A stretch of 38,075 nucleotides of DNA from positions 1 through 38,075 of the forward strand of contig CALGNA010000066.1 of assembly GCA_937958795.1 (NCBI GenBank), read 5' to 3'. The stretch is from an uncultured Bdellovibrionales bacterium. GTDB lineage: Bacteria; Bdellovibrionota; Bdellovibrionia; Bdellovibrionales; UBA1609. This document shows positions 6,293 to 21,803 of the stretch, in pieces; position 1 is the first letter of the stretch; each line of letters begins with the position of its first letter. Position numbers and translations under genes: made by a program. The notes beneath the pieces are model-generated. The model searched no databases. It was not told the origin of the DNA and saw only the letters and a program-made list of their open reading frames with translations.

Positions 6293-7294
6293 CTAGTCCG
6301 CATTCCAACCCTTTCTTATTGAGATGGCTTGCATTGTTAGGAAAATCACAAAACCTAGAATCATAAGCAACATTAGAATTCTCTTAATCCACTTTAGGGG
6401 GTTAAATTTGAGATCACCTATCTCTGGGCCTGTTTTATCTGATGTTTCTGTTTTAATTTCAAAACTTTGTGCTTTTTCATTGTTTTGATTTTCGATTTTA
6501 ATCGTTTTTGAAGTAAATCTTTGATTTTGCTCTTTATCTATTTCCTGGACGCCAACAATGGAGCGGACCCCTTCACCACTGGTATTCCCAAAAGAGCCTC
6601 CAGATGATGATCTTGAGTTTCCATTCCTAAAGCCTTCATCATCATTCTTTGAATTAGACCCTGAACTAGCCGTTTCAGCTGAGTCTCCTCCACCTGACTT
6701 ATTAAACTCGGCAAGTTCTCCTCTTCCGGCAGCAGACGATCCTCCAGATCCACCCGAGCCTTCTGTTGCACCACCACCAGAGCCTACTCGCGACCTACCA
6801 CTTGTTGATGGACTTCCACTTCTGGATCGAGGGGATGATGATGAGGCTCCTCCGCTAGAAGACCCTCCGCCAGTAGCTCCTCCCGAATTTCCAATATTAA
6901 TGGGTCTTCCTGTTACTAAAGTAAAAGCCTGGTACTGACTATCGCATCTACCAGAAGGGGTCAGACCCCAGGGAAGCTCCCCTCTTTGTACAAGACAGAC
7001 AACATAATCACCTAAATAATTATCAAACCACTGCTTAAAAGAATCATTTAATTGGTAGTTTAAACCCCACACAAGAATCAAACTCACAACGGCAAGGAGA
7101 ATGAACTCTACACTAGCTTGCCCTTTAGGAAAGCGAGAAATAGGACCAGCCGCTTGTACTTTGGGAATGCCAGAAACAAAACCAGGCACACGGCCTTTTG
7201 TTGATTCTAGATTTAAGTCTTGTTCGATACCTAAATCACAAGCACTTAAAAGCCGATAGTTTTTTGTGAAGTACTTTTTAGGATCCTTTTTCAT
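6293..7294 (-). CDS. Pilin/TadE-like membrane protein with Gly/Ser-rich low-complexity core and C-terminal TM anchor
   Basis: A class-III signal-like motif KG-QASV-EF-ILLAVVSLILVWG nearly matches the mature N-terminus of the flp product. A long G/S/R-rich tract follows, then a C-terminal hydrophobic segment (ILMLLMILGFVIFLTMQAI). The ATG at 7294 overlaps the divergent gene at 7266. An in-frame GTG at 7189 would give a 24-aa leader and remove the overlap. Confidence 0.6.
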   Translation of the reverse strand: MKKDPKKYFTKNYRLLSACDLGIEQDLNLESTKGRVPGFVSGIPKVQAAGPISRFPKGQASVEFILLAVVSLILVWGLNYQLNDSFKQWFDNYLGDYVVCLVQRGELPWGLTPSGRCDSQYQAFTLVTGRPINIGNSGGATGGGSSSGGASSSSPRSRSGSPSTSGRSRVGSGGGATEGSGGSGGSSAAGRGELAEFNKSGGGDSAETASSGSNSKNDDEGFRNGNSRSSSGGSFGNTSGEGVRSIVGVQEIDKEQNQRFTSKTIKIENQNNEKAQSFEIKTETSDKTGPEIGDLKFNPLKWIKRILMLLMILGFVIFLTMQAISIRKGWNAD

Positions 7295-8387
7295 ATTTAT
7301 TAGCTTAACTCATGCTTGTGTAAGCCACGCTTCTAACAGTTTGAATCACGCCCAAAGTCTTTATAATTCCAGACAATACTCCAAAGTTATAAAAAAACTC
7401 CAACCCTATTTTAAGCGGTTAGACTATCAACATTTACTTTTGCTTTCATTTGCATATGAAAAAAAAGGCCTCTACTTAGATCAAATCAATTGCTTAAAAA
7501 AAGCTCTTAAACTTAACAAACAAGCTGCCTTTTCACTTCAAGTTAAACTTGTAGAGGTTTACTTAAATTTAGCTGAAAATGGTTTGCCAATATATTCTCA
7601 AATAAATAAAAGCCTTGGCTTAAGCGCAGAAAGTCGCTCCTATGATTACTCTGGACTCTATACTCTTGAAGCTCAAAAATATATTTACAATTTACATACA
7701 ACCTATCCTAAACATCAAAAAGTATGGGAGCTCAAAATTAAGAGCCTTCTTTTAGATGGAAACACAACAGATATTGTTTCAAGCATCCAAGAATCAAAAA
7801 AACACAATCCACATTTATCAAAAGATCTTAATAGACATCTCTGTGTGTGGTCTTCTAAAACAGGCTATACAAAATTTATTTATGAAAGCTGCCAGCGAGC
7901 TCTTCATGAAAACAAAAGAGATGAAAAACTTTATTTAGGATATTGGGATTGGTTAAACAGTCAAAATGATACATTGAAGAGAAAAAATTTTTTAAACAAA
8001 GCTCTCATAATTTTTCCAAAATCTACAAAATGGCTTGATATCGCATATCATTCTACGAACTTAAATTATACAGAACTTCAAAAAAAGAAATGGCTAGAGC
8101 GTTGGATCTCTCTAGATCCTAACTATACAAGTTATTACAAAAAAGCTCTCTATTTATTTAAAAGCAAGGACTACAAAAAGGCCCTTACTTATTTTGAGAA
8201 AGCTTGCCACAAAATCAAAAGACCGCCTCAAGAGTTTTTACATGATTTTCAAAAAAGCATGAACGACTTAAGGCTAAAACAAAACTCTATATCTAAAAAT
8301 TATTATAAATCTTGGAATGAATGCAAAGTTCTAAAGTCAGATATCACCTACAAAGACCGACTCGCTCAAGAGGAGACTTCTCTTTAA
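7266..8387 (+). CDS. Secreted TPR-like repeat protein
   Basis: It has a GTG start and a signal peptide (FLGSFFIFISLTHACVSHA). The body is helical-repeat-like and rich in Y/K/L (AQSLYNSRQYSKVIKKL..., YKKALYLFKSKDYKKALTYFEKA). Confidence 0.55.
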   Translation: MKYFLGSFFIFISLTHACVSHASNSLNHAQSLYNSRQYSKVIKKLQPYFKRLDYQHLLLLSFAYEKKGLYLDQINCLKKALKLNKQAAFSLQVKLVEVYLNLAENGLPIYSQINKSLGLSAESRSYDYSGLYTLEAQKYIYNLHTTYPKHQKVWELKIKSLLLDGNTTDIVSSIQESKKHNPHLSKDLNRHLCVWSSKTGYTKFIYESCQRALHENKRDEKLYLGYWDWLNSQNDTLKRKNFLNKALIIFPKSTKWLDIAYHSTNLNYTELQKKKWLERWISLDPNYTSYYKKALYLFKSKDYKKALTYFEKACHKIKRPPQEFLHDFQKSMNDLRLKQNSISKNYYKSWNECKVLKSDITYKDRLAQEETSL

Positions 8388-8406: not shown

Positions 8407-8907
8407 TTAGAGTTTTTCTAGATAACTGCTTTCACCTTTAAAAAAAGGGACAAGGGGACTCTCAGCATTCAGATGAACAAAGAACTCTTTATACTGTTCT
8501 AAAATTTTATTTTCTATAGACAATATCCCATTTATACCACCATGACAAAATTGGACTTCAAGTAGGGAAGATTTTTCTTGTTTCAAATAAACCTGAAGAT
8601 GACTGACCCCATCAGTTAAGCTCTCAAATGAAAAGGCATAGGTATTCTTATAAAACAGCTCTTTTTTTAAGGCATACAACTTATCTATAAAATTATCGGC
8701 TGAATCAAAAAATTGACAGATACTATTATCAACATCTGTTTTCAATTTAAAGTTTTGCTGGAATTCTAAAAAAGCATACATGCCACCTAAAGTGGTTTGA
8801 GAGCAGTCTAAAATCCGAATTATCTGATCTTTATTATTCAAACAAAAATCATTCAGTAACTGAATACCTGTAGCGTAGGTTTTATTTTCTAAAATGATTA
8901 AATTCAT
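8407..8907 (-). CDS. Hypothetical cytoplasmic protein, divergent from flp
   Basis: 166-aa ORF with no signal peptide and no family I recognise. It is called only on ORF length and its fit between neighbouring genes. Confidence 0.45.
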   Translation of the reverse strand: MNLIILENKTYATGIQLLNDFCLNNKDQIIRILDCSQTTLGGMYAFLEFQQNFKLKTDVDNSICQFFDSADNFIDKLYALKKELFYKNTYAFSFESLTDGVSHLQVYLKQEKSSLLEVQFCHGGINGILSIENKILEQYKEFFVHLNAESPLVPFFKGESSYLEKL

Positions 8908-9080: not shown

Positions 9081-9162
9081 GATAATATTATCTGACTTAA
9101 ATTGTTTTTGTTTTACTATTAAGCCGATAGATTTTCATAGGTTAAATCTTAATTATGAAATC
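9081..9162. promoter_or_regulatory. Candidate operator inverted repeats in the flp upstream region
   Basis: A perfect 12-bp palindrome GATAATATTATC lies at 9081-9092. An imperfect inverted repeat GATTTTCATA-N14-TATGAAATC lies at 9130-9162, 36-117 nt upstream of the flp ATG. Both sit in AT-rich DNA, so chance occurrence is possible. Confidence 0.2.
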
Positions 9163-9197
9163 TATCTTGATATATGTACAAAAAGCAGGAGTTATTT

Positions 9198-9395
9198 ATG
9201 AAAAATATTAAAAATTGGGCAAAAAAAGAGTTTAAAAGATTTTGCCAAGAAGAATCTGCTCAGGGCATGACAGAGTACATCTTGTTAGCCGTTGTTGTGA
9301 TTGGTGCACTTATTGCCTTTAAACAACCCATTCAAGATGCATTAAGCGGAAAAACCTCTGATGTAACAAGTGAAATTGGTAACTTCGGTTTCTAA
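9198..9395 (+). CDS. flp: Flp-family type IVb/IVc pilin (prepilin)
   Basis: The sequence MKNIKNWAKKEFKRFCQEESAQGMTEYILLAVVVIGALIAF has a basic leader, the Flp EY motif and a hydrophobic helix. AGGAG at 9187-9191 lies 6 nt before the ATG at 9198, so I prefer this start to the track start at 9174. Confidence 0.85.
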   Translation: MKNIKNWAKKEFKRFCQEESAQGMTEYILLAVVVIGALIAFKQPIQDALSGKTSDVTSEIGNFGF

Positions 9396-9398
9396 GAA

Positions 9399-9578
9399 TT
9401 GACTCTTGAATACGTCCTCCTCTTACTATCAACAGTACTACTCGCCGTGAGCCTCTTTGGACAAGGAAGAGGCCCTATTGATAGTTTTGCAAAAGCTGGA
9501 CCTGCACTTGGTGCTAAGCTAGAATATGTCCTAGAAACAGGCTCTGACTTTGAAATGCTTTGGTCAGAACCCAACTAA
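9399..9578 (+). CDS. Flp-like small ORF (59 codons, TTG start), leaderless, in frame with flp
   Basis: My own translation is (M)TLEYVLLLLSTVLLAVSLFGQGRGPIDSFAKAGPALGAKLEYVLETGSDFEMLWSEPN*. It has the EY motif plus a hydrophobic helix, like a mature Flp. It starts one codon after the flp TAA (9393-9395), has no obvious SD, and at 59 aa is shorter than any ORF in the supplied track. Confidence 0.4.
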   Translation: MTLEYVLLLLSTVLLAVSLFGQGRGPIDSFAKAGPALGAKLEYVLETGSDFEMLWSEPN

Positions 9579-9643
9579 AGTCTTTTTAAATTTCTATCAA
9601 ATTTTTCTACTGACCATCTTATAATCTAAAACTCCCCTGGTCC

Positions 9644-9669
9644 TTAGGCTCTTCTGGCCTGGTTTTTTT
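9644..9669 (+). terminator. Weak intrinsic terminator/attenuator after the pilin gene(s)
   Basis: The stem TTAGGC-N7-GCCTGG has 4 Watson-Crick and 2 G-U pairs and is followed by T7 (9663-9669). Partial termination after the major pilin gene is common in pilus operons. Confidence 0.3.
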
Positions 9670-9694
9670 ACACACACTGATTCAAAATAAAGAG

Positions 9695-10195
9695 ATGATA
9701 ACGGGCTTCTTTTTAACACTTATTATTTTTGTTCTCTTTTTTTCAGGCGTTGCTGAGGATTTTATTTCAAAAAAAATTTCTAATTGGACCAACTTGATTC
9801 GACTTGGAGTAAGCCTTCTTATTGTCCTTTTGATTCTTGGTTTTGATCACTGGACCCTGCGACTGACAAGCATCCCTCTTGTTCTAGGCCTTATGCTTCC
9901 ACTCTTTTTAATCAGGGCTATTGGAGCTGGTGATGTCAAACTTATGGCAGCCCTTGCTGTTTTTTGGGATTGGAAGCAAGTTGTTTTTATTCTACTTTTT
10001 AGCCTTATCTGGGGCGCCCTGTTTGGAGTTATTTCAAGTCTACTAAAAGACAGGGGCAAGACTCTTTTAAAAAATATCTATCTTATTGCTCACAAACACC
10101 TCTACTTTACAGCTCACTATATGCCATTTAGTTTTGCACTCTTTTTAGGTTGGGTGACTGTTCTTATCTTTGGAGTGGATTTTCCATGGCTATAA
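9695..10195 (+). CDS. tadV: Flp prepilin peptidase (A24 family, short TadV/CpaA type)
   Basis: 166-aa polytopic membrane protein. The two aspartate motifs are present: EDFISKKISN (D..(R/K).I(P/S)N type) and GAGDVKLMAAL. Confidence 0.85.
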   Translation: MITGFFLTLIIFVLFFSGVAEDFISKKISNWTNLIRLGVSLLIVLLILGFDHWTLRLTSIPLVLGLMLPLFLIRAIGAGDVKLMAALAVFWDWKQVVFILLFSLIWGALFGVISSLLKDRGKTLLKNIYLIAHKHLYFTAHYMPFSFALFLGWVTVLIFGVDFPWL

Positions 10196-10449
10196 GAACA
10201 TCAACATCACATACAAAAAATAATGCTGGCCAAGGTATGGTAGAAGCCATTTTAATAGCTGTTCTGGTCTTAGGGGTTGCTAAGCTTGTCGTAGGTACTA
10301 TTAAGGGCGAAGAGTATTTAGCTAAAATAACCAACGGTCCCTGGAATAGCATTCGTGGTGTTATAGAATACGGTCGATATAAAAAGTATACATCTGCTGA
10401 TGCAGATACAGATCACCCTCATCTATGGGCTACGGGTAAAGTTCCTTAA
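10186..10449 (+). CDS. Flp/pseudopilin-like protein with class-III signal motif
   Basis: The sequence MAIRTSTSHTKNNAG-QGMV-EA-ILIAVLVLGVAKLVV fits G-x4-E followed by a hydrophobic helix. The ATG at 10186 with GGAG at 10172 is preferred over the TTG at 10150, which lies inside tadV. Confidence 0.65.
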   Translation: MAIRTSTSHTKNNAGQGMVEAILIAVLVLGVAKLVVGTIKGEEYLAKITNGPWNSIRGVIEYGRYKKYTSADADTDHPHLWATGKVP

Positions 10450-11058
10450 ATGAGGCTTTTAAAAAAACAAAATCGAACTCTTCAAGATCATTCAGGTTTT
10501 TTAACGCTTGATTTTATACTAGTAGCTCTTGTCATATTTTCACTTTTTTTGGTTTATATGAATCTTCTTTTTAGCTTTTCGAGTACTTTTCTTTTTCAAT
10601 ATGCCAGTTATTCATCAGCCAGAAGCTATATGGCTGGTGATATTTCTGAAGTCGAGCAGGAGTCAAATGCTGATATAAAGTTTCAAAACCTTTTAAATCA
10701 AAATTTTTTTAGTCTTTTGGATAAAAACAAATGGATCGTGGTTTCTGACTTTAGAATGGGCTATGACAGTACTAAATCTCAACGTTCAAATCCGGGTGCC
10801 TACAAACCTTTTCAAGGTGTCCAGATATCACTTATTTATAAAATGCTGTCCTTTGAACTTCCCATTGCTGGCTCTACTTCGTTTTCTGGCTCTCCTGATG
10901 CCTTTCAAGCAACGGTTAGCTCTTTTTTAAGAAGAGAGCCTTCACAAGAAGATTGTGTCGAGTTTAATAAAAAAAGACCTGATAAAATTTATCAAGTTTT
11001 AGGCGTAAGTGGACAAGTCGCGGCCCCCGTTTTTTTTGCAGGTGAAAATGGCTGCTAA
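10450..11058 (+). CDS. TadE/TadF-like pseudopilin
   Basis: The N-terminus ...QDHSG-FLTL-DF-ILVALVIFSLFLV is a TadE-type motif with Asp in place of Glu. The start abuts the preceding stop (TAA ATG). Confidence 0.6.
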   Translation: MRLLKKQNRTLQDHSGFLTLDFILVALVIFSLFLVYMNLLFSFSSTFLFQYASYSSARSYMAGDISEVEQESNADIKFQNLLNQNFFSLLDKNKWIVVSDFRMGYDSTKSQRSNPGAYKPFQGVQISLIYKMLSFELPIAGSTSFSGSPDAFQATVSSFLRREPSQEDCVEFNKKRPDKIYQVLGVSGQVAAPVFFAGENGC

Positions 11059-11566
11059 ACATAACGCCACTTTATTAAAAAACAATTTTCAAAATTCTGG
11101 GTTTGCTTCCATTGAAATGATTCCCATTTTAATTGTTGTTGTGGGTCTTTTAAGTTTTAGCTTTGGTTTTTTCAGTGTCATTCAAAGAGCCACGCTTTCG
11201 AGTATTTCAAGTTTAAATTCATCTATCTCTACGATGACAAATAGAGCTAATGTAACGCACTTTAACAGTAACCCAGCTAATAATGTAGAGGACCTCTATC
11301 CTCTACGATATAGACTTGTTTATATTAGAAAATCCGGTGCCTCAGTGCTTGGGCCTCAAAAGGATTCACCCGACATTAGTCTTATTCGTGAACCTTCCAG
11401 CCAAGGCTTTTCAAACCCTAGCCTTAATACCAGTGCCGACTTTCATAACCAGGAATTGGAAGCTCATGATCACTTAAATGATCAAACAAGAGGCATAAAA
11501 GGGGTGAATCCTGTTTGGATTAAAACTGCCCTTGGGATATGCCTAAGAGCTGATTGCGGCCTCTAA
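11048..11566 (+). CDS. TadE/TadF-like pseudopilin
   Basis: MAAKHNATLLKNNFQNSG-FASI-EM-IPILIVVVGLLSF fits G-x4-E plus a hydrophobic helix. The ATG at 11048 with AGGTGA upstream is preferred over the GTG at 11009. It overlaps the previous gene by 11 nt. Confidence 0.6.
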   Translation: MAAKHNATLLKNNFQNSGFASIEMIPILIVVVGLLSFSFGFFSVIQRATLSSISSLNSSISTMTNRANVTHFNSNPANNVEDLYPLRYRLVYIRKSGASVLGPQKDSPDISLIREPSSQGFSNPSLNTSADFHNQELEAHDHLNDQTRGIKGVNPVWIKTALGICLRADCGL

Positions 11567-11680
11567 TACATTTATACATGCAAGAAATCTAGACTTATTT
11601 GAAATAGCTTTTTTACCGATAACTTCATTGAAATCCTTTTATTTAAAGGAATTAACTTTAGCTTTTATTGAGGTTTATCA

Positions 11681-12646
11681 ATGGACAACACTTCATCCCG
11701 CAACTTATGGATCTCTTTAGGTTTAGGACTCTTAAGTGTTTTATTACTCTTTAGTTACACTCAGGAAAAAAACCAAGAACTAACTAAAAAGTTTGGCGCA
11801 ACTGATGTTGTTGTCGTAGCTAAAGTAGACATACTTGAACTCCAAACTATAGACGAGACCATGATCGAGGTTGTGGAAAAACCTGTGGATTACATTGAAC
11901 CAGGAGCCATGAAGCGACCTCAAGAACTTGTTGGACAGGTTGCCACAGTTCCCATTAAAAAAAATGAACAGATCCTAAGTACTAAAATTTTACCACCTGG
12001 ACCTTTTACTGGCTTATCCTTACAAATTTCACCAGGTAAGCGTGCTCTAACACTTCCTATTGATGCCATGAGAGGCGTTGCTAAGCTAATCAAGCCAGGT
12101 GATCGCGTTGATTTAATCATCGCAGTCGATCACGGACGTGGACAAAACCAAAAACGTGAAGTCCGAACTCTTATGGAAAATGTTGTTGTACTTGCTACGG
12201 GTTTAAGAATTGCCAATGAACTTCCCCTTCTTTATGAAAAAGACCCTCGTGGTGAAAAGCTCACAGCCTATAACCTAACTAAAGATACCAGCTTTAATTC
12301 TATTACAATTGAAGCAAACCCTCTTGAGGCTCAAAAGCTTGTTTATGTTCTGGCTACAGACCCTAGTAAACTTTTTATGACCCTACGACACCCTACTGAC
12401 AGCTCTCCGACACAGGCTGGTACCATTGGTATTCAAAATATCTTGAGTTCTCAAAACCCAGCAGCAAGAACCACAAGCTCTGTGCGAGCGCCCTCATCAC
12501 AAAGAACTACCTCAAGCTTTAATCGCCCAGCAGCAGGGTCAAATTTTAATTCATTAGGTGCAAGTAAACCTCAAAGTCTTAAACCATCAAAAAGTCTACC
12601 ACGAAAAAGATCCTCAAATAGAACAGGAAGATTTAAATCGCTGTGA
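11681..12646 (+). CDS. cpaB: Flp pilus assembly protein CpaB/RcpC
   Basis: It has an N-terminal TM segment, a SAF-like region (VVVAKVDILELQTIDETMIE) and a CpaB-type core (IKPGDRVDLI...VLATG). It carries an unusual Ser/Thr/Pro/Arg-rich C-terminal tail. Confidence 0.85.
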   Translation: MDNTSSRNLWISLGLGLLSVLLLFSYTQEKNQELTKKFGATDVVVVAKVDILELQTIDETMIEVVEKPVDYIEPGAMKRPQELVGQVATVPIKKNEQILSTKILPPGPFTGLSLQISPGKRALTLPIDAMRGVAKLIKPGDRVDLIIAVDHGRGQNQKREVRTLMENVVVLATGLRIANELPLLYEKDPRGEKLTAYNLTKDTSFNSITIEANPLEAQKLVYVLATDPSKLFMTLRHPTDSSPTQAGTIGIQNILSSQNPAARTTSSVRAPSSQRTTSSFNRPAAGSNFNSLGASKPQSLKPSKSLPRKRSSNRTGRFKSL

Positions 12647-14160
12647 ATTTTTTATACCGTCTCTTTTTTATTTTACTGATAAGTCTGGGAACTTCCTTTT
12701 TCAGCTCTGCTTTGAACTCCAACACCGGAGATCTTACAAAGTATGAAAACCTCTATCTTGTTCAAGGTGTTTATAGTGATCAAAAAATTGAGGGCCTCCC
12801 TACTAACTTTAAACTCGCTAATAGAAGATTTACTAAGATTGTGAGTCTTAGCTATGATTCTAAAGATAAAATTATGAGATTTAAGCCTTTAAAAAAAGGC
12901 AATGCAACTATCACTTTTTTAGATCCTAAAACAGATAATGTGATTAAACAGTTTAATATTTATGTAGCTAAAAGTGAGCTTCAAAGAAAAGCTCATGAAG
13001 TTGAAGACCTTCTCAAAACAGTTGAAGGCGTAAACATTAAAGTTATTAACGATAAAATCGTTGTGGATGGACTTATTGTTTTGCCTTCAGACATGAACCG
13101 AATTGCATCTGTTATCAAACAGTATCCAGATTCTGTTTCCTTAGTTCGCTTAAGTCCTCTTGCCTATCAAAAAATCTCTAGAAGAATAGAACAAGAAATT
13201 AACAATCCAGATGTTTATGTTAAATCTATCAATGGTTGGTTTATCATCGAGGGCCAAGTTGCTACTCCAGAAGAGAAAACAAAAACTATTGAGTTAGCAT
13301 CTGCATTTATACCAGATCAGGTTGTTCAGTTTGCTGAGTCTGGACCCGATGGTGCACGATTAAACGTTAGAAAAAGAAAAACGGTTCCTATTATTGATAA
13401 TTTAAAAATTAAAATACCTCCTCCTGGCCCCCCTCCTCCTGAACCAAAGTTATTTCAAATTACGGTCCATTACGTCGAACTTCAAAAAGATTTCAGCAAA
13501 GGTTTTCGCTTCCAGTGGACTCCAACTATGCTAACAAATACTGAAGTTAGCGCAGGTATAGGTGGAGCTATCACTCAGCCTATAGCTGCTATTCAAGCAA
13601 CCATCTCTAATCTCATCCCTCGTTTGGATTGGGCCAAGGAACATGGCTATGCCAGAGTTTTACAAAGTGGAAGTTTATTAGTTAAAGAAAATGTTATCGG
13701 AAAGTTAAACAGTAAAGAAAGCATACCTTATCAATCCTTTTCTGAAGGACAATTTGGCTCTACCAAAACAGAGTACTTAGATGTGAGCTTTGATTTGACT
13801 GTTCAACCTAAACTTAAAAACCCACGTTCTGACCAAATTGATTTAAATCTTGGTTTTGTTCTTGAGCAATCCTCTGGAAGCTCTGCAGGTCCTAGTAAAA
13901 CTGGTAACTCTATTTCTACAGAAGTTACAGTTAGATCTGGTCACAGTGCAGCCGTTGGTGGAATTATTAAGTCTGCTCACTCAAAGGGATTTAACCGTTT
14001 ACCTACAAGTGTTCCCGCTAATCCACTTTTTAAATTATTTACATCTAAAAATTTCTCAAGTGGACACAGCGAATTTGTTGTTTTTGTCACACCTCAAGTC
14101 AGACATTCGGCAAGTGATAATGTAGATAAAATTAAAAAGAAACTTAGGCTAAAGAGATAA
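12643..14160 (+). CDS. cpaC: Tad secretin CpaC/RcpA
   Basis: The GTG start overlaps the cpaB stop (GTGA). It has a signal peptide and a pilus-N-type domain (RFKPLKKGNATITFLD). A PPPGPPPPEP linker is present, and the secretin C-terminus reads LPTSVPANPLFKLFTSKN...EFVVFVTPQV. Confidence 0.85.
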   Translation: MNFLYRLFFILLISLGTSFFSSALNSNTGDLTKYENLYLVQGVYSDQKIEGLPTNFKLANRRFTKIVSLSYDSKDKIMRFKPLKKGNATITFLDPKTDNVIKQFNIYVAKSELQRKAHEVEDLLKTVEGVNIKVINDKIVVDGLIVLPSDMNRIASVIKQYPDSVSLVRLSPLAYQKISRRIEQEINNPDVYVKSINGWFIIEGQVATPEEKTKTIELASAFIPDQVVQFAESGPDGARLNVRKRKTVPIIDNLKIKIPPPGPPPPEPKLFQITVHYVELQKDFSKGFRFQWTPTMLTNTEVSAGIGGAITQPIAAIQATISNLIPRLDWAKEHGYARVLQSGSLLVKENVIGKLNSKESIPYQSFSEGQFGSTKTEYLDVSFDLTVQPKLKNPRSDQIDLNLGFVLEQSSGSSAGPSKTGNSISTEVTVRSGHSAAVGGIIKSAHSKGFNRLPTSVPANPLFKLFTSKNFSSGHSEFVVFVTPQVRHSASDNVDKIKKKLRLKR

Positions 14161-16382
14161 TGGCAACTCCTAACTCAAGCTCCATTATTACGATCATTGG
14201 CGGAAAAGGCGGCTTGGGGAAAAGCGTCTTTGCCTCTAATCTAGCATGTGCCATTCAAACTCAACTTAAAGCTAAAACGTGCCTCATAGATTCTGATCCC
14301 AATAGCTGTGGCGATCTTAATATTTTGCTCAATTTAAAACCAACAAAAACGTTTTCAGACCTGACAAGTTTTTCAGGAAATGTTTCGCAATCTGTTTTAA
14401 ACTCTCATCTCACAAAGCACTCTTCAGGTTTAAGTCTCTTAGCTTCTGTTGTTGACCCAACACAGTCTCCCGAGCCTGAATCATCAAATATTGGCTTTGC
14501 TCTTAATACTATTGCTCAATCACATCCCTTTATCATTGTTGATCAAGGCCATGAGTGGTCTCCAAGTCTAGAAGCTATGCTTCATAAGACACATTTACTT
14601 ATTTTTGTTTTAACTCCAGATCTTTTAACTTTAAATCATTCAAAAAAACTTTTAAATAAAGTACTTGCCTCAGGAGTGCCTAAAGAGATCATTTACTCTG
14701 TTGTTAACCAAGCAACGCCAAACGGTATTAAGGCATCGGTATTAAGCTCAACCATGAAACTGCCTCTCTTAGGTCAAATCCCTGAAGATAATGCAACTGT
14801 TCAAAGCTCTATTCAAAAGGGAATGCCTTTTGTTCTGACTAGCCGATCACCTGTTGCTGCAGGGTTTACTAGTATTTTAAGACAGCTCCAAGGCGGACTC
14901 TTAGCTAAATTAAAAGCATTTGAAAACAAGAAACCTGCAAATCATTTAAAGGTCTTAAATTCTTCAAATTCATCTCATGATAGCAACAATAACAAATTAA
15001 AACTTATGATCCACGAAGCTCTTATAAAAGAAATGGATCTTAAAAAAGATTTACACAACACCAAAGAAGATCCCAAAAAAGAGACAGAGCTTAGAGAAAA
15101 AACAAAAAAAATGATCTCTCAACTTATTACAAGAATGGCTCCTCAATTAGCCAGAGAGCAAAGGTCTACTATTTTAGAAGAAGTTCTTGCAGAGGCTCTT
15201 GACCTTGGAGCATTAGAAAAACTCTTAAGTGATGATGCCGTTACAGAGATTATGGTAAATGGTTGCGATAGAATCTTTGTAGAAAAAAATGGAAAAGTGG
15301 TTTTAAGCCCCTTAACATTTACATCCAATCAACAACTTCGTAACATCATTGAACGTATTGTGACTCCTCTTGGTCGACGTATTGATGAAAAAACACCTTA
15401 TGTGGATGCGAGACTCAAAGATGGGAGTCGAGTTAACGCCGTCATTGAGCCTCTTTCTATAGATGGTCCAGCATTAACGATTCGTAAATTTGCAAAAGAA
15501 ACCATTACGCCACAACACTATTTAAACTGGGGATCCATGACTCAACCCATGGTTCACTTCTTAAAACTTTGCGTGGAACAGGGCCTTAACGTTGTGATCT
15601 CTGGTGGTACCGGATCTGGTAAAACAACTTTACTTAATGTTCTTTCAAGCTTTATCCCCTCAAACGAAAGAATCGTAACTGTGGAAGATGCAGCTGAATT
15701 GCAACTCTCACAGGAGCATGTTGTTCGACTCGAGACTCGTCCTGCCAACATGGAAGGCACTGGTGCTATTGAAATTAGAGATTTGGTCCGAAACTCATTA
15801 CGTATGAGACCTGATAGAATCATCGTTGGGGAGTGTCGTGATGGAGCTGCTCTTGATATGCTTCAAGCCATGAACACAGGGCATGATGGGTCCATGACCA
15901 CTGTTCATGCCAACAGCCCAAGAGAAGGTGTCTCAAGACTTATGACTTTATGTATGATGGCAGGAATGGACTTACCTTCGCAAGCCATACGTGAACAAAT
16001 TGCTGGAGCAGTTAACCTTTTTGTACAAATCGGTAGATTAAGCGATGGAAGCCGTAAGGTTAAGAGCATTACAGAAGTTGTTGGCATGCAGGGTGAAACT
16101 ATCACATTGCAGGAAGTTTATAGGTTTAAAGAAGAGGGCTTTGATAAAAATAGAAAGATAGTGGGTCAATTTCAAGCAACAGGTCTTATTCCAACTTTTA
16201 TTGAAAAATTTGAAAGAAAAGGTCTCAAAATACCACGTACATTATTTTCAAATGATCCCAGCACACAAAAAGCTGGCGTACAAAAAGCTGGCCTTAAAAA
16301 AACGAGCACACAAAAAGCTCAAGTTAAGTCTTTTAAGCCAAAATCTCTCACTAAAAAAGCAGTTGGAGGGTCTGACGAATGA
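14160..16382 (+). CDS. Fusion protein: CpaE/TadZ-type MinD/ParA ATPase domain + CpaF/TadA secretion ATPase
   Basis: A single uninterrupted 740-aa ORF. Residues ~8-250 carry a deviant Walker A IIGGKGGLGKS and a MinD/ParA-like fold pattern. After an Asn/Ser linker comes a complete CpaF: KLMIHEALIKEMDL..., Walker A SGGTGSGKTTLLN, Walker B/Asp box IIVGECRD and the His box TGHDGSMTTVHAN. Confidence 0.85.
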   Translation: MATPNSSSIITIIGGKGGLGKSVFASNLACAIQTQLKAKTCLIDSDPNSCGDLNILLNLKPTKTFSDLTSFSGNVSQSVLNSHLTKHSSGLSLLASVVDPTQSPEPESSNIGFALNTIAQSHPFIIVDQGHEWSPSLEAMLHKTHLLIFVLTPDLLTLNHSKKLLNKVLASGVPKEIIYSVVNQATPNGIKASVLSSTMKLPLLGQIPEDNATVQSSIQKGMPFVLTSRSPVAAGFTSILRQLQGGLLAKLKAFENKKPANHLKVLNSSNSSHDSNNNKLKLMIHEALIKEMDLKKDLHNTKEDPKKETELREKTKKMISQLITRMAPQLAREQRSTILEEVLAEALDLGALEKLLSDDAVTEIMVNGCDRIFVEKNGKVVLSPLTFTSNQQLRNIIERIVTPLGRRIDEKTPYVDARLKDGSRVNAVIEPLSIDGPALTIRKFAKETITPQHYLNWGSMTQPMVHFLKLCVEQGLNVVISGGTGSGKTTLLNVLSSFIPSNERIVTVEDAAELQLSQEHVVRLETRPANMEGTGAIEIRDLVRNSLRMRPDRIIVGECRDGAALDMLQAMNTGHDGSMTTVHANSPREGVSRLMTLCMMAGMDLPSQAIREQIAGAVNLFVQIGRLSDGSRKVKSITEVVGMQGETITLQEVYRFKEEGFDKNRKIVGQFQATGLIPTFIEKFERKGLKIPRTLFSNDPSTQKAGVQKAGLKKTSTQKAQVKSFKPKSLTKKAVGGSDE
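16261..16320 (+). repeat. Short in-frame direct repeats encoding the Lys-rich C-terminal tail of the CpaE-CpaF fusion
   Basis: ACAAAAAGCTGGC occurs at 16265-16277 and 16280-16292 (15-nt period). GCACACAAAAAGCT occurs at 16261-16274 and 16306-16319. The encoded peptide is STQKAG-VQKAG-LKKT-STQKAQ. Confidence 0.6.
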
Positions 16383-17266
16383 ACTTCTTACAAGAACTAA
16401 TAGGTAAAGAGTGGTTTTTTATTCCAATCTTTGGGTTACTAGTTTTCTTATGTTTATTTTTTGTTCTCCAACCTCTCATTGATTTTATAACAAGAAATCA
16501 TTCTAAGGCTTTTGAAAAGACATCCTTTAACTTAGATCTCATATTTGTAGATGTAGAGCCCAAACAACTTAACGGTCTTATTATTTTCTCAAGCTTTGGA
16601 CTAGGTATCTTGTTTTTTCTACTAGCTTGGCCAAATTTTATAGCCTCTCTTATCCTCTTTGCAGTTATAACTCCCCTTGGCTGGCTTCTGCCCCCCTTGG
16701 TCACTAAATTTTTATGGGAAAAACGCTCTACAGAAATCACCAATCAAATGGTCGATGGGATGACTATTATGGCCAATGGAATTAAAGCAGGACTCTCCAT
16801 AACACAATGCATGGAAAGAGTTTTAGAACATTTAAGCGGCCCATTATCTCAAGAGTTTAAAATTGCCTTAAACAAGGTCAGATTAGGACGAACAGTTGAG
16901 GATGCATTATCTGAAATGGCAGAACGTGTCCCTAAACAAGATGTGCAAATGCTTGTGACTTCTATCAATATTTTAAAAGAGACTGGTGGTAATCTTGGTG
17001 AAACTTTTGAAACCATCAATTTTGTTGTTAGAGAGCGACAAAAGTTGGAGAAAAAAATTCAAGCCATGACAGCAACGGGTACTTTCCAGGGCCTTATTTT
17101 ATCAAGTGTCCCCTTTTTACTCCTAGCTTTTTTTAGTTTTGCAGACCCGACTTATGTTAAGCCCTTATACAATACAATGCCTGGACTTTTGTCCCTAGGA
17201 GGGGTCGTGTTCTTGGTCTGTCTAGGTGGCCTAATGATCAAGAAAATTGTTAGCATAAAGGTCTAA
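16379..17266 (+). CDS. tadB: Tad platform protein TadB/TadC (T2SS F family); only one copy in the locus
   Basis: 295-aa polytopic membrane protein with a cytoplasmic helical T2SSF-like domain (MANGIKAGLSITQCMERV...LGRTVEDALSEMAERVP). The ATG overlaps the preceding TGA (ATGA), and GGAGG lies 9 nt upstream. Confidence 0.8.
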   Translation: MNFLQELIGKEWFFIPIFGLLVFLCLFFVLQPLIDFITRNHSKAFEKTSFNLDLIFVDVEPKQLNGLIIFSSFGLGILFFLLAWPNFIASLILFAVITPLGWLLPPLVTKFLWEKRSTEITNQMVDGMTIMANGIKAGLSITQCMERVLEHLSGPLSQEFKIALNKVRLGRTVEDALSEMAERVPKQDVQMLVTSINILKETGGNLGETFETINFVVRERQKLEKKIQAMTATGTFQGLILSSVPFLLLAFFSFADPTYVKPLYNTMPGLLSLGGVVFLVCLGGLMIKKIVSIKV

Positions 17267-17319
17267 GGTTTTTTAGATAAACTCTGAGAAGCCTTTGTCA
17301 GCTTTATCCTGGGGTTTAT

Positions 17320-18999
17320 ATGTTAAAAAAATTGTTCCGCTTATCTTCTCTTTTATTTTTCCTGTTATTTTTAAGTGTCACTAGTTTTGCACTCATCGAT
17401 ATGAGAAATGCAAACTACACACAGTCTTGGACAGATCTCGATTATGTAGGGACTGGATTTAGAATGCGCCTTGAAAGAACATATAACAGTCGTTCTCAAT
17501 TTAAAGGCCTATTTGGTTATGGCTGGTGTACAGATTTTGAAACTAAATTATTTTCAGATCCAAACGGTGATATAAGAATTAAAAACTGTGGAGCAGGTAA
17601 AACTGTTTTATTTAGAAAAAGAAATAAGCTTCTATCTAACAGACAGGATATGATTGGACAGGTTCTTTCTAAATACCAAAAAACCTACCCTAGTACATCT
17701 ACTCGAGAACTCAAAAAACTAAAGTCTAAACTCACAAAATCTGATCACTTGCTATCTACTATGATAGAAAACCTACAAATGACATCTGCAGCATCAGATG
17801 GAACCTATATTGCTGTTGGTCAAATTGGTGAAACTCTTACAAAAACTTCAACTGGATTTAAAAGAAAACTTTCAGATGGAAGCTATCAGAGCTTTGATGC
17901 TAAAGGCTTTATTAAAGGAATGTATGATCGCAATAAAAACTATATTAAAATTCAGTCTTTAAACGGAAAAATTACGAGTGTTTTAGATAACTCAGGTAAA
18001 AAATTATTATTTAAATACGATGCAAACTCAGGGCTTGTTTCAAGTGTAAAAGGCTACGACGGAAAAACCATTTACTACAAATATAGTGGTGATGATCTCG
18101 TTTCTATTAAAAACACTTTAGGCACTTATCAAATCTCTTATAAACTCCATAATATCACTCAAATTGTTTTCCCCAATAAGAAAACAGAAATCTTAAACTA
18201 TGATTTTGATAAAGACTGGGTCACTTCTTTTAAACATCAAGATGGGTGTAAAGAAACTTATAAATATCAAGCTGATCCAAAAAGTCCAAGAGATCACTAT
18301 TGGTCAGAAGTTAAAAAACAATGTAAAGGAAAGATTGTAAATCAAAGTCGATACGAATTTTGGTATAAACTCAAAAGAAAATCTACTGACAAATATCTAG
18401 CTCGCGTTTTATCTGAAGTAAATGGATATGTTAAAGACATTTCTTATCACGATATTTTTGGTACCCCGACTCGTATTACAGATGGTCCTACAAAAACCTA
18501 CTTTACCTATTTTGATTCTGGCCTGTTAAAGTCTAAAACAGTGGATAAAATTCGATTTAGTTACGACTACAATACAAGCTGCCAAAAGGTATCTCAGGTT
18601 TCGGTTGAAAACCTTAACAGAGCACCGTCAGCTAAAAGCCAAATCATTAATAAAGCAAAGTCTCAGTTTAAGTATTCTTCTCAAACCTGTGATCTTGTTC
18701 AAGCAAGCACGTCAGATGGCAAAGCTTTTATCTTTGAATACGATAAATCAGGCAGGATTAGACAAATTAAAGATAGGGCTCGTAATGTTCTCGCTTTAAA
18801 GTATATAAAAGACTCTTCTCAACCAGCAAGAGTCTATAGAAAAGGTATTGGGCAGATAAATATTGAGTATGATAAAAGTGGTAATGTTAAAAACGTCTTT
18901 AGCCCACAAGGTGGGCAGGCTGCCCTCCAAGTAGCCTCTACTTTTAATCAAGCCCTTGAAGTCATAGCACCAGCAACTAAAAACCTAGGAAGTATCTAA
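17320..18999 (+). CDS. Secreted YD/RHS-repeat protein without recognisable toxin domain
   Basis: It has a signal peptide. The N-terminal signature is Rhs-type: RLERTYNSRSQFKGLFGYGWCTDFE. YD-type repeats follow: FKYDANSGLVSSVKGYDGKTIYYKYSGDDLVSI, FEYDKSGRIRQIKD, IEYDKSGNVKNVF. Confidence 0.75.
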   Translation: MLKKLFRLSSLLFFLLFLSVTSFALIDMRNANYTQSWTDLDYVGTGFRMRLERTYNSRSQFKGLFGYGWCTDFETKLFSDPNGDIRIKNCGAGKTVLFRKRNKLLSNRQDMIGQVLSKYQKTYPSTSTRELKKLKSKLTKSDHLLSTMIENLQMTSAASDGTYIAVGQIGETLTKTSTGFKRKLSDGSYQSFDAKGFIKGMYDRNKNYIKIQSLNGKITSVLDNSGKKLLFKYDANSGLVSSVKGYDGKTIYYKYSGDDLVSIKNTLGTYQISYKLHNITQIVFPNKKTEILNYDFDKDWVTSFKHQDGCKETYKYQADPKSPRDHYWSEVKKQCKGKIVNQSRYEFWYKLKRKSTDKYLARVLSEVNGYVKDISYHDIFGTPTRITDGPTKTYFTYFDSGLLKSKTVDKIRFSYDYNTSCQKVSQVSVENLNRAPSAKSQIINKAKSQFKYSSQTCDLVQASTSDGKAFIFEYDKSGRIRQIKDRARNVLALKYIKDSSQPARVYRKGIGQINIEYDKSGNVKNVFSPQGGQAALQVASTFNQALEVIAPATKNLGSI

Positions 19000-19277
19000 T
19001 GAAAAAAAACTTAACTCTACTTTTACTTATTTTCTCTACGCTTATTTTTTCTCATATTGCTTTTGGAGAAACATCTAGTACCGCTACTGATGTTTCTGAA
19101 GCTGGTTTAGCTGGCGATTGCAACCCTAATGCAAGCTCTGTAGGTATGTTTGATGATACAACACCTAATGTAACATTAAACAGTACTACCTCTCCTACTG
19201 GAGACGGAGCCACAGAAGGCAGCGGTGACTCTTCTATGCCATCGGGGCTTCCAACAGGACGTCCTCAAGGAAGATAA
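18999..19277 (+). CDS. Small secreted low-complexity (Ser/Thr/Gly/Asp/Pro-rich) protein, translationally coupled to the YD-repeat gene
   Basis: The start overlaps the preceding stop (TAATG, 18997-19001). The signal peptide is MKKNLTLLLLIFSTLIFSHIAFG. The mature ~69 aa lack hydrophobic core residues. A strong terminator follows. Confidence 0.6.
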   Translation: MKKNLTLLLLIFSTLIFSHIAFGETSSTATDVSEAGLAGDCNPNASSVGMFDDTTPNVTLNSTTSPTGDGATEGSGDSSMPSGLPTGRPQGR

Positions 19278-19309
19278 TCTTATTTTTCATATCTATTGAA
19301 TTTCGTAAA

Positions 19310-19335
19310 GGCGGCTTTTTAAGCTGCCTTTTTTT
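19310..19335. terminator. Bidirectional rho-independent terminator between the Tad/YD block and the convergent response-regulator gene
   Basis: The stem GGCGGCTT-TTT-AAGCTGCC has 8 bp including one G-T pair. It is flanked by AAA on the 5' side and T7 on the 3' side. Confidence 0.65.
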
Positions 19336-19338
19336 GGT

Positions 19339-19731
19339 TTACTTACTTTTTTCTATGAGACTTGTTAGTCTTTTTACCAAAGCTTCTCTTTGAAAGGGCT
19401 TCTGTAAAAAATCATTAAATCCCGAGCTTAAGGCTTGGCTGACCACATACTCTGTATGATTTGTTGAGCAGGCCAATACTGGGCTTGTAAACTCTAACTC
19501 TCTCAATTTTATAATAGCATCTAGTCCACTCATGACAGGCATGACTATATCTAGAATAACTAAATCAGGCTTAAGTTCCATACATTTTTCAACAGCTTCC
19601 TGACCGTTTTCAGCCTCAGCAACCACTTCAAAAGAAGTGCCTACACTTAAAAAATTAAGAATAATCTCACGAATAAAGGGGGCGTCGTCTGCGACTAGAA
19701 CTGAGTATTTAGAATCAACAGGTTTGTTCAT
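19339..19731 (-). CDS. Stand-alone CheY-like response regulator receiver protein
   Basis: 130 aa. It has the acidic pair VADDAP, the phospho-acceptor context LVILDIVMP, a conserved Ser/Thr region (LACST) and the Lys motif (QKPF). There is no output domain. Confidence 0.85.
   Translation of the reverse strand: MNKPVDSKYSVLVADDAPFIREIILNFLSVGTSFEVVAEAENGQEAVEKCMELKPDLVILDIVMPVMSGLDAIIKLRELEFTSPVLACSTNHTEYVVSQALSSGFNDFLQKPFQREALVKRLTSLIEKSK

Positions 19732-19852: not shown

Positions 19853-21803
<1,951 letters not shown>

Follow-up and report, generated by a model that had tools for sequence, protein, structure and literature searches.

The Tad/Flp operon and its terminal gene pair

We analysed a 38,075-nt stretch of DNA (hereafter, the window) from an uncultured Bdellovibrionales bacterium (assembly GCA_937958795.1, contig CALGNA010000066.1). 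One co-directional tight adherence (Tad)/Flp pilus operon fills positions 9198–19277 of its plus strand, as delimited by the map of open reading frames (ORFs) and by Pfam; all coordinates refer to the whole stretch. The operon ends with genes for an exported 559-aa RHS/YD-repeat protein and a 92-aa signal-peptide protein. In our reading, this block is very probably the orthologue, in a low-GC Bdellovibrionales lineage, of the TAD/Kil-like type IVc pilus operon of Bdellovibrio bacteriovorus (bd0119 to bd0108), including the terminal Bd0109/Bd0108 pair of the host-interaction (hit) locus.

The operon was compared with related loci, i.e. the best 80 (L001–L080) of 350 from an RHS profile scan of species-representative genomes. 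The comparison with B. bacteriovorus refers to strains Bd16 (L048), s4 (L066) and YOA24 (L039), strain HD100 being outside the set. The Tad core is complete and comprises a Flp pilin, an A24 peptidase, CpaB/RcpC, a secretin, a TadA-type ATPase, TadB/C and TadZ/CpaE (Table 1). These were assigned by Pfam and NCBIfam, with the Flp pilin scoring below threshold and identified by motif and conservation. The ATG of flp1 (position 9198) lies inside an ORF spanning 9174–9395 and is preceded by a ribosome-binding site, AGGAG, at 9187–9191. The flp1 product scored 28 bits against Flp1_like in Pfam (cut-off 33.5) and carries the motif QGMTEY followed by a hydrophobic stretch. The second pilin gene, flp2, encodes the "trimmed" leaderless form that was reported to be specific to Bdellovibrio TAD loci and missing from Bacteriovoracaceae (PMC5430801). 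The three prepilin-like ORFs that follow tadV had no family match in Pfam or NCBIfam. Each of them contains G-x4-[E/D] followed by a hydrophobic segment, and their homologues were found in 50–56 related loci. In the cpaE::cpaF product, the CbiA domain covers residues 10–217 and T2SSE covers residues 346–626 (Pfam), and NCBIfam recognised the TadA family with E 4e-95. The fusion is kept in the relatives, which aligned over ~720 aa with 52–58% identity.

Successive genes are linked by stop/start overlaps, namely GTGA between cpaB and cpaC, TAATG between cpaC and cpaEF, and ATGA between cpaEF and tadB/C. The RHS/YD gene begins 53 nt past tadB/C, and its stop overlaps the start of the 92-aa gene as TAATG, so that the two genes are coupled in translation. 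The gene order, the ORF coordinates, the junction overlaps and the 53-nt gap had all been described in the original prediction, which was made from the DNA letters, and the ORF map reproduced them; the last TAATG was read directly. Pfam likewise agreed with the naming of the tad genes and the YD/RHS gene, and motif and conservation bore out the prepilin-like ORFs. The 92-aa protein, described as rich in Ser, Thr, Gly, Asp and Pro, does have a clear signal peptide and a low-complexity mature part, and the proposed bidirectional terminator was located downstream of it.

Table 1. Features of the Tad/Flp operon and its immediate surroundings. Numbers of loci refer to the related loci with a homologue.
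Feature	Position	Strand	Evidence and remarks
GCCGATAG box, sigma-28 (FliA) -10-like	9123..9130	+	68 nt 5' of flp1 ATG
flp1, major Flp-type pilin	9198..9395	+	Flp1_like E 1.5e-6, sub-threshold; positional homologues in 47 loci
flp2, "trimmed" leaderless Flp-like pilin	9399..9578	+	N-terminus MTLEYVLLL; 49 loci
Terminator-like hairpin with T-run, between flp genes and tadV	9644..9662	+	consensus scan alone
tadV, prepilin peptidase	9695..10195	+	Pfam Peptidase_A24 E 7e-12; 37 loci
Small pilin-like protein	10186..10449 (ORF from 10150)	+	motif G|QGMVEA, then hydrophobic helix; 50 loci
Minor-pilin-like, TadE/F-resembling	10450..11058	+	motif GFLTLDF; 55 loci
Minor-pilin-like, TadE/F-resembling	11048..11566 (ORF from 11009)	+	motif GFASIEM; 56 loci
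cpaB/rcpC	11681..12646	+	Pfam RcpC 2.9e-19, SAF 1.4e-9; 43–59% identity to related loci
cpaC/rcpA, secretin	12643..14160	+	Pfam Secretin 4.7e-18
cpaE(tadZ)::cpaF(tadA) fusion, 740 aa, ParA/MinD-like domain and secretion ATPase	14160..16382	+	Pfam CbiA/ParA and T2SSE
tadB/C, platform protein, single copy	16379..17266	+	Pfam T2SSF 1.5e-17
Bd0109-type exported short RHS/YD protein, 559 aa	17320..18999	+	Pfam DUF6531 and RHS_repeat; B. bacteriovorus orthologues
Bd0108-like small secreted disordered protein, 92 aa	18999..19277	+	position, profile scores, disorder; core DCNPNASSVGMFDDTTPN
Bidirectional intrinsic terminator, common to operon and convergent response-regulator gene	19307..19331	.	11-bp stem, A-run before, T-run after
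Single-domain CheY-like response regulator, convergent, outside operon	19339..19731	-	Pfam Response_reg 1e-27; 55 loci, same strand
groEL	19853..21493	-	conserved neighbour, 32 loci

The exported RHS protein

A search with the 559-aa protein recovered 33 full-length relatives of 540–595 aa (540–570 aa for all but the most distant), with 28–40% identity. The named RHS relatives came from Bdellovibrionaceae, Pseudobdellovibrionaceae or Bdellovibrio. Alignments with the products of the RHS gene of B. bacteriovorus Bd16, s4 and YOA24 covered residues 10–556 at 36–38% identity, with E values of 1e-122 to 1e-128, and both in these strains and in the window the gene occupies the same position, at the tad operon's 3' end. 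Bd0109 of B. bacteriovorus has been described as an RHS/YD protein of 550 aa with a signal peptide; its gene and the adjoining bd0108 stand at the end of the flp/tad cluster, and bd0108, bd0109 and bd0110 share a transcript (PMC3818213).

The AlphaFold2 (AF2) model of the 559-aa protein was made with a 19-sequence alignment and reached a predicted local distance difference test score (pLDDT) of 85 and a predicted template modelling score (pTM) of 0.70. In the predicted layout, the signal peptide is followed by a β-rich DUF6531 N-domain (residues ~25–100), a three-helix insert (108–151), unbroken β-hairpins (161–527, ~370 aa of RHS) and a conserved C-terminal helix (532–553). Four cysteines, C70, C90, C310 and C335, show at least 90% conservation, which fits an exported RHS protein. 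Sequence and fold searches of the PDB matched only Rhs effectors, teneurins and Tc BC components; profile E values went down to 1e-20 and Foldseek E values down to 7e-24, with Foldseek template modelling (TM) scores of 0.2–0.38. Such low TM scores are expected from a sheet approximately half the size of a closed cocoon, and they suggest an open or partial sheet. Neither the PxxxxDPxGL / DPxGL core-end motif nor a C-terminal toxin domain was found in the 559-aa protein, and the NCBIfam model RHS_core gave 20.8 bits (cut-off 2000).

The 92-aa protein and its relation to Bd0108

In the mature part of the 92-aa product, 77% of the residues are S, T, G, D, P, N or A. The product lies on the disordered side of the charge–hydropathy plot, and AF2 modelled the signal-peptide helix alone, with pLDDT of 50–57 elsewhere. 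An ORF of 70–180 aa with a signal-peptide-like N-terminus follows the RHS gene in 78 of the 80 loci; in the two loci that have no small ORF, the contigs stop less than 120 nt past the RHS gene. The gap between the RHS gene and the small gene is at most 100 nt in 73 loci and most commonly 12 nt, and a 4-nt overlap occurs in eight loci. The small proteins themselves diverge extremely fast, with all-versus-all phmmer yielding clusters of 24 and 9 and mostly singletons. They nevertheless follow a common plan, in which the signal peptide is followed by an acidic polar stretch, a Cys pair near the centre and a tail rich in G, S and T. At least two Cys are present in 67 of 72 relatives, and CxxC is the commonest arrangement (34 proteins). 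We also observed versions without any Cys in the mature part in the low-GC clade nearest to the window (L007:10207-10458, L012:11630-11881 and L024:11662-11913), and versions with one Cys, as in the window, in L071:11708-11956 and L078:11702-11932. The existence of Cys-less and one-Cys versions among the relatives indicates that the Cys pair was lost repeatedly.

The 92-aa protein, which is acidic and Sec-exported, is by its location the positional equivalent of Bd0108, and the profile comparisons indicate that it is probably also a remote Bd0108 homologue. Its sole match among 18,950 NCBIfam models was hit_Bd0108 (NF053838, "predatory lifecycle switch protein"), with 14.5 bits and E 0.038. 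The same model matched 22 of the 73 positional equivalents, any other model matching at most two. A Bd0108-clade profile built without the window protein scored it at 19.2 bits (E 3.5e-4), the best of 2000 composition-preserving shuffles reaching 11.6 bits. In this profile alignment, TDVSEAGLAGDC...GMFDDTTPN stands opposite (A)EVAalGiCkeC...RLkDdTt, placing C on C and DDTT on DdTt. The same 31 columns were aligned by hhalign against the Bd0108-clade alignment (P 0.0011, probability 21%). Moreover, jackhmmer started from the mature B. bacteriovorus s4 protein, in a set of 74 small proteins and 5453 decoy ORFs, recruited 17 proteins, the window protein included, and no decoys. Seeding jackhmmer with the window protein, or with the small proteins of L071 or L025, gave no spread; among the seeds tried, only a profile started from the B. 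bacteriovorus clade reached the window protein. C..[LMFIV]xD[DN]T, as a motif, turned up in 0.3% of shuffled window-protein sequences and in 4 of the 5453 decoy ORFs, and the core C...[LMF]xDDTT is common to the window protein and Bd0108.

The small gene also contains an imperfect 10-nt direct repeat (19125–19134, CCTAATGCAA; 19164–19173, CCTAATGTAA), 39 nt apart and in frame. The repeat pair brackets exactly the conserved core PNASSVGMFDDTT, an arrangement similar to that in bd0108, where 10-bp repeats flank the 42-bp deletion. We estimate that, given the length and composition of the gene, ~3 such 9-of-10 pairs would arise by chance, and we dropped the repeat as an analogue of the bd0108 deletion hotspot; the pair is probably a coincidence.

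A second family of small secreted proteins

Between the Bd0108-like gene and the response-regulator gene, at least one further small signal-peptide ORF was present in 49 of 52 loci (for example, L027:12142-12336 and L027:12591-12770). The corresponding interval measures 62 nt in the window (19278–19338), with no extra small gene, and at least 580 nt elsewhere. Of the extra ORFs, 31 form one phmmer-linked family rich in basic residues, Ala and Thr. A Bd0108-like core, C-x7-9-[ML]F-[DK]-[NK]-T, recurs in several extra ORFs, e.g. CNGQAPVKMFDNT, which points to a tandem-paralogue relationship between the two families of small proteins. Membership of the 92-aa protein in the second family was considered and rejected. 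The hidden Markov model E value was 1.3e-4 with the signal peptides included; once these were stripped, the score of 8.7 bits compared with a shuffle maximum of 8.3, and the protein was left unassigned in this respect.

Synteny and source organism

BLASTP of each operon protein against all ORFs revealed that the order flp1, flp2, (tadV), three minor pilins, cpaB, cpaC, cpaEF, tadB/C and RHS is uniform across the 80 loci. Downstream, a convergent response-regulator gene was found in 55 loci and groEL in 32, B. bacteriovorus being among them, and the two genes are order-wide conserved neighbours of the hit locus. Judged by homology and synteny, the operon in the window is orthologous to its B. 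bacteriovorus counterpart.

The two operons differ in tadV, a gene that the window and most lineages keep within the operon. For the loci of the B. bacteriovorus clade (L027, L030, L031, L033, L035, L039, L044-L046, L048, L049, L063, L066-L068 and L074), BLASTP found no tadV match at this position. In L048, for instance, the starts of flp2 (2655) and of the following pilin gene (2846) leave no space for tadV. It appears that tadV was lost from the operon, or relocated, in this clade.

All of the 80 loci are labelled Bdellovibrionales, bar two metagenome-assembled genomes (MAGs), and the complete genomes of B. bacteriovorus Bd16 and s4 are included. The two MAGs are L032 (CALQIT020000003.1, "Streptomyces griseus MAG") and L034 (JBLMWG010000151.1, "Bacillota MAG"). 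Both carry a typical Bdellovibrio-type tad/hit locus, and the small protein of L034 is near the Bd0108-type proteins of the B. bacteriovorus clade. The two contigs are almost certainly mis-binned or mislabelled.

The best named matches of GroEL all belonged to Bdellovibrionales or Bdellovibrionota (79–82% identity). In the neighbour-joining tree of concatenated CpaB, CpaC, CpaEF, TadB/C and RHS, the window formed a long solitary branch. Its neighbours were a low-GC clade of L001, L013, L070, L024, L012 and L007 (32–37% GC), and the B. bacteriovorus clade was far from it, at ~45% identity. The GC content is 36% in the window and 44–50% in the B. bacteriovorus-clade loci. As the nearest RHS match among species representatives had 40% identity, the lineage of the window is unrepresented among them. 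On the basis of the GroEL matches and the operon-protein tree, the source organism is placed in Bdellovibrionales, on a long lone branch.

Transcription signals and upstream genes

A CCGATA box of the sigma-28 -10 type was found 5' of flp1 in 37 of 47 related loci. The TAD operon of B. bacteriovorus is reported to be under FliA control (PMC5430801), with a FliA promoter upstream of flp1 in B. bacteriovorus and B. exovorus. A FliA-type promoter at 9123–9130 in the window would fit this reported control; because the spacing of the -35 element is atypical, the assignment is tentative. The hairpin at 9644–9662 might act as an attenuator and so fix how much pilin is made relative to machinery. We also noted a sigma-70-like site, TTGTCA-18-TATGTT, at 17295–17324, in the 53 nt that separate tadB/C from the RHS gene. 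This site may be an internal promoter, which would agree with bd0108 and bd0109 being reported as not FliA-regulated. In the promoter and terminator consensus scans, sites were no commoner than in shuffled sequence, and from these scans we relied solely on the terminator at 19307–19331 and the conserved CCGATA box.

Upstream of the operon, at 7266–8387 (+), lies a gene for a signal-peptide TPR protein with weak positional homologues in L056 and L029; it could be a TadD-like pilotin. For the 166-aa ORF at 8407–8907 (-), neither a Pfam match nor a homologue in any of the related loci was found.

Proposed function and alternative explanations

The original prediction proposed that this block is a divergent counterpart of the hit locus in an AT-rich Bdellovibrio-like organism, and the RHS homology together with the synteny supports that proposal. 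Its background on bd0108 and bd0109 (a small secreted disordered protein, the location at the end of the flp/tad cluster, prey-independent mutants) agrees with the published accounts (PMC3818213, PMC4267844). The expected homology to the hit genes was found at full length for the 559-aa protein. For the small protein, it took the form of a weak and consistent similarity to Bd0108, below the curated cut-off and lacking CXXC. The 92-aa product, for which a disorder prediction had been proposed, came out as disordered by both charge–hydropathy and AF2, GroEL and the syntenic neighbourhood placed the organism within Bdellovibrionales/Bdellovibrionota and not outside, and the terminal pair recurred in the tad loci of the relatives (78 of 80). 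Thus, none of the three findings that had been named as refuting the proposal (an organism outside the predatory lineages, a pair with neither homology nor synteny to the hit genes, and its absence from the tad loci of close relatives) was obtained.

By orthology, what the window encodes is most likely the predation-associated pilus of B. bacteriovorus, together with an accessory pair of an RHS protein and an intrinsically disordered protein (IDP) that modulates the pilus. The lifestyle-switch or signalling function of the pair is carried over from the experiments on B. bacteriovorus (PMC3818213, PMC4267844). In this scheme, the operon would be expressed in the attack phase, possibly from the FliA-type promoter, and the pilus would act at the prey-contacting pole and be needed for predation. 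The open RHS β-sheet would bind its disordered partner weakly, either in the periplasm or on the cell surface. The pair would then modulate pilus extrusion and retraction, and hence the signal coupling prey contact to growth.

Several points weigh against this interpretation. The mechanism of Bd0108 and Bd0109 is unsettled even in B. bacteriovorus. Searching with the 92-aa protein, phmmer found only the protein itself, in the set of 73 positional equivalents as well as in 1.84 billion representative proteins, and the score against hit_Bd0108 misses the curated cut-off of 40 bits. The mature part has a single Cys and no CXXC. The protein also lacks NPGEDPNEA, an N-terminal stretch found in the B. 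bacteriovorus clade and located in the part of Bd0108 for which contact with Bd0109 has been reported. Owing to the lack of a single-sequence homologue, the sub-cut-off score and the absence of both CXXC and the NPGEDPNEA stretch, functional equivalence of the 92-aa protein to Bd0108 is unproven. We must also note that the -35 TAAA of the GCCGATAG box is at a non-canonical spacing.

The same observations can be accommodated if the operon and the RHS gene are orthologous and the 92-aa gene is a positional analogue. The site would then be a slot for fast-turnover or de novo small secreted genes, its present occupant would not descend from Bd0108, and the function need not match. The blank phmmer searches speak for this explanation, as do the predominance of singletons in the all-versus-all clustering, the NCBIfam score under the cut-off and the hhalign probability of only 21%. 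Prehna et al. likewise detected no homology for BMS_0183/4 of Halobacteriovorax marinus (PMC4267844). However, three independent profile methods align the same core, each of them above composition-preserving or decoy controls. The protein also has the hallmarks of the family, i.e. a signal peptide, an acidic disordered N-terminal part, a mid Cys, a G/S/T-rich tail, a length of 70–120 aa and tight coupling to the RHS gene. We regard a positional analogue as unlikely.

Two further explanations concern the block as a whole. Rhs toxins typically have a small immunity gene next downstream (discussed in PMC3818213). With RHS repeats present, the YD protein and the small ORF could be viewed as a toxin/immunity pair that lies beside the pilus operon by chance. 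This would require a core end and a toxin domain, and the 559-aa protein has neither the DPxGL autoprotease motif nor a toxin domain; its C-terminus is a conserved helix. Its length is approximately half that of a closed cocoon (~1000 aa or more), the TM scores are at most 0.38, and RHS_core gave 20.8 bits where its cut-off is 2000. Export and disorder also set the downstream protein apart from cytoplasmic immunity proteins, and the pair is fixed in one operon slot across the whole order, unlike mobile polymorphic toxins. With no core end, no toxin domain and an exported, disordered downstream protein, the toxin/immunity explanation is effectively refuted, and we give it almost no weight. Tad loci are widespread and usually mediate adhesion. 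The pilus might be an ordinary adhesion pilus of a non-predator, with accessory genes unrelated to predation. Against this stand the gene-for-gene synteny with the Bdellovibrionales TAD/Kil-like cluster and a set of lineage-specific features, namely the trimmed flp2, the CpaE::CpaF fusion, the single TadB/C and the Bd0109/Bd0108-type pair. In B. bacteriovorus, moreover, the flp genes are needed for predation and not for adhesion (PMC5430801), and the top GroEL and RHS relatives of the window are all Bdellovibrionales. An ordinary adhesion pilus is accordingly most improbable, and orthology with the B. bacteriovorus operon, terminal pair included, is the reading that we retain.

Implications for the hit locus

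The system itself has already been published; the window is an unusually divergent new member of it, with a function assigned by analogy. Work on how Bdellovibrio switches between obligate predation and growth without prey has classically used the hit locus as its genetic handle. To this, the window adds a divergent natural variant with ~37% RHS identity, a one-Cys Bd0108-like protein, no paralogue array and tadV within the operon. Across the 80 loci, the invariant elements are the operon order, a short, open RHS protein in which four Cys are near-invariant and the C-terminal helix is conserved, and a coupled small secreted disordered protein. By comparison, CXXC, the NPGEDPNEA stretch and the second small gene seem dispensable. 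Such a comparison reveals no new kind of system, and it is useful for designing experiments on Bd0108 and Bd0109.

A broader generalisation can be put forward only tentatively, and we hold it to be somewhat doubtful. In every Bdellovibrionales TAD/Kil-like operon, the open RHS protein of Bd0109 type might be accompanied by the small disordered protein as a hypervariable and near-universal partner, with a minimal core, Cys...[LMF]-x-D-[DN]-T, that is also found in the second, tandem paralogue family. If so, the single-Cys, single-gene window would represent the minimal form, and neither the CXXC disulfide nor the paralogue array would be essential. The extreme divergence could then mean a prey-facing protein or a species-specific pilus lock, and not a conserved internal regulator.

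It has been stated that bd0108 is "unique to a subgroup of Bdellovibrio species" (PMC12428579) and that many Pseudobdellovibrionaceae lack it (PMC11870529). Our survey of ORFs would modestly correct both statements, as a coupled small secreted gene appears to be nearly universal at this position and too divergent for BLAST. In consequence, "Bd0108 absent" calls made from BLAST would be unreliable.

Comparison with known systems

The Rhs, Tc-BC and teneurin cocoons are built from the same repeat type as the window protein. The latter differs in having approximately half their length, no aspartyl-protease core end and no encapsulated toxin.

With the Kil system of Myxococcus xanthus and the Kil-like Tad subclass, the window shares CpaB, the secretin, the ATPase, the platform protein and several minor pilins, which may form a tip complex in such a Tad machine. 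The B. bacteriovorus cluster was classed as a Kil-like Tad of predatory bacteria (Seef et al. 2021, PMC8460266; Herrou et al. 2025, PMC12075869), and we infer that the window belongs to this subclass solely through its synteny with that cluster. An RHS/IDP pair is unreported for Kil in PMC8460266 and PMC12075869, and the type III secretion system partner of Kil (T3SS*) is not evident in the window.

As reported by Prehna et al., the Bd0109 homologues of B. exovorus and H. marinus have small signal-peptide neighbours; in H. marinus SJ, BMS_0182 is the Bd0109 homologue and BMS_0183/4 are its neighbours (PMC4267844). Arrays of short secreted genes beside Bd0109 homologues were also described in wastewater Bdellovibrionales MAGs (PMC10469934). 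The window resembles these loci in that a tad-terminal RHS homologue is followed by small secreted coding capacity with weak or undetectable similarity to Bd0108. It differs in having one small gene, not an array of two or three, and in the sub-threshold Bd0108 signal of that gene, unlike BMS_0183/4 as reported.

The closest known counterpart is the hit locus of B. bacteriovorus HD100, in which Bd0109 (550 aa) and Bd0108 (a 101-aa secreted IDP) end the TAD operon bd0109-bd0119; bd0109-bd0113 were found to be syntenic across Bdellovibrio-like organisms (PMC5430801). Bd0108 is intrinsically disordered and binds Bd0109 weakly, with a dissociation constant of about 45 µM. Mutation of bd0108, often by a 42-bp deletion between 10-bp repeats, leads to prey-independent growth and altered pilus extrusion, and a deletion of Bd0109 was not obtainable (PMC3818213, PMC4267844). 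Expression of this operon's flp genes falls in the attack phase, and they are needed for predation but not for attachment or adhesion (PMC5430801). The window is a stripped-down variant of this locus, in that a single small secreted gene takes the place of two or three and a lone Cys that of CXXC. Bd0108 has a C56-x-x-C59 disulfide (PMC4267844), whereas the window protein has one Cys. The B. bacteriovorus clade has the NPGEDPNEA stretch and lacks an in-operon tadV, and the window shows the reverse; it is also devoid of further small secreted paralogues before the response regulator. The two loci share the operon order, the convergent response regulator, groEL downstream, and a full-length RHS homologue with a signal peptide and no toxin domain, followed by a small disordered signal-peptide protein.

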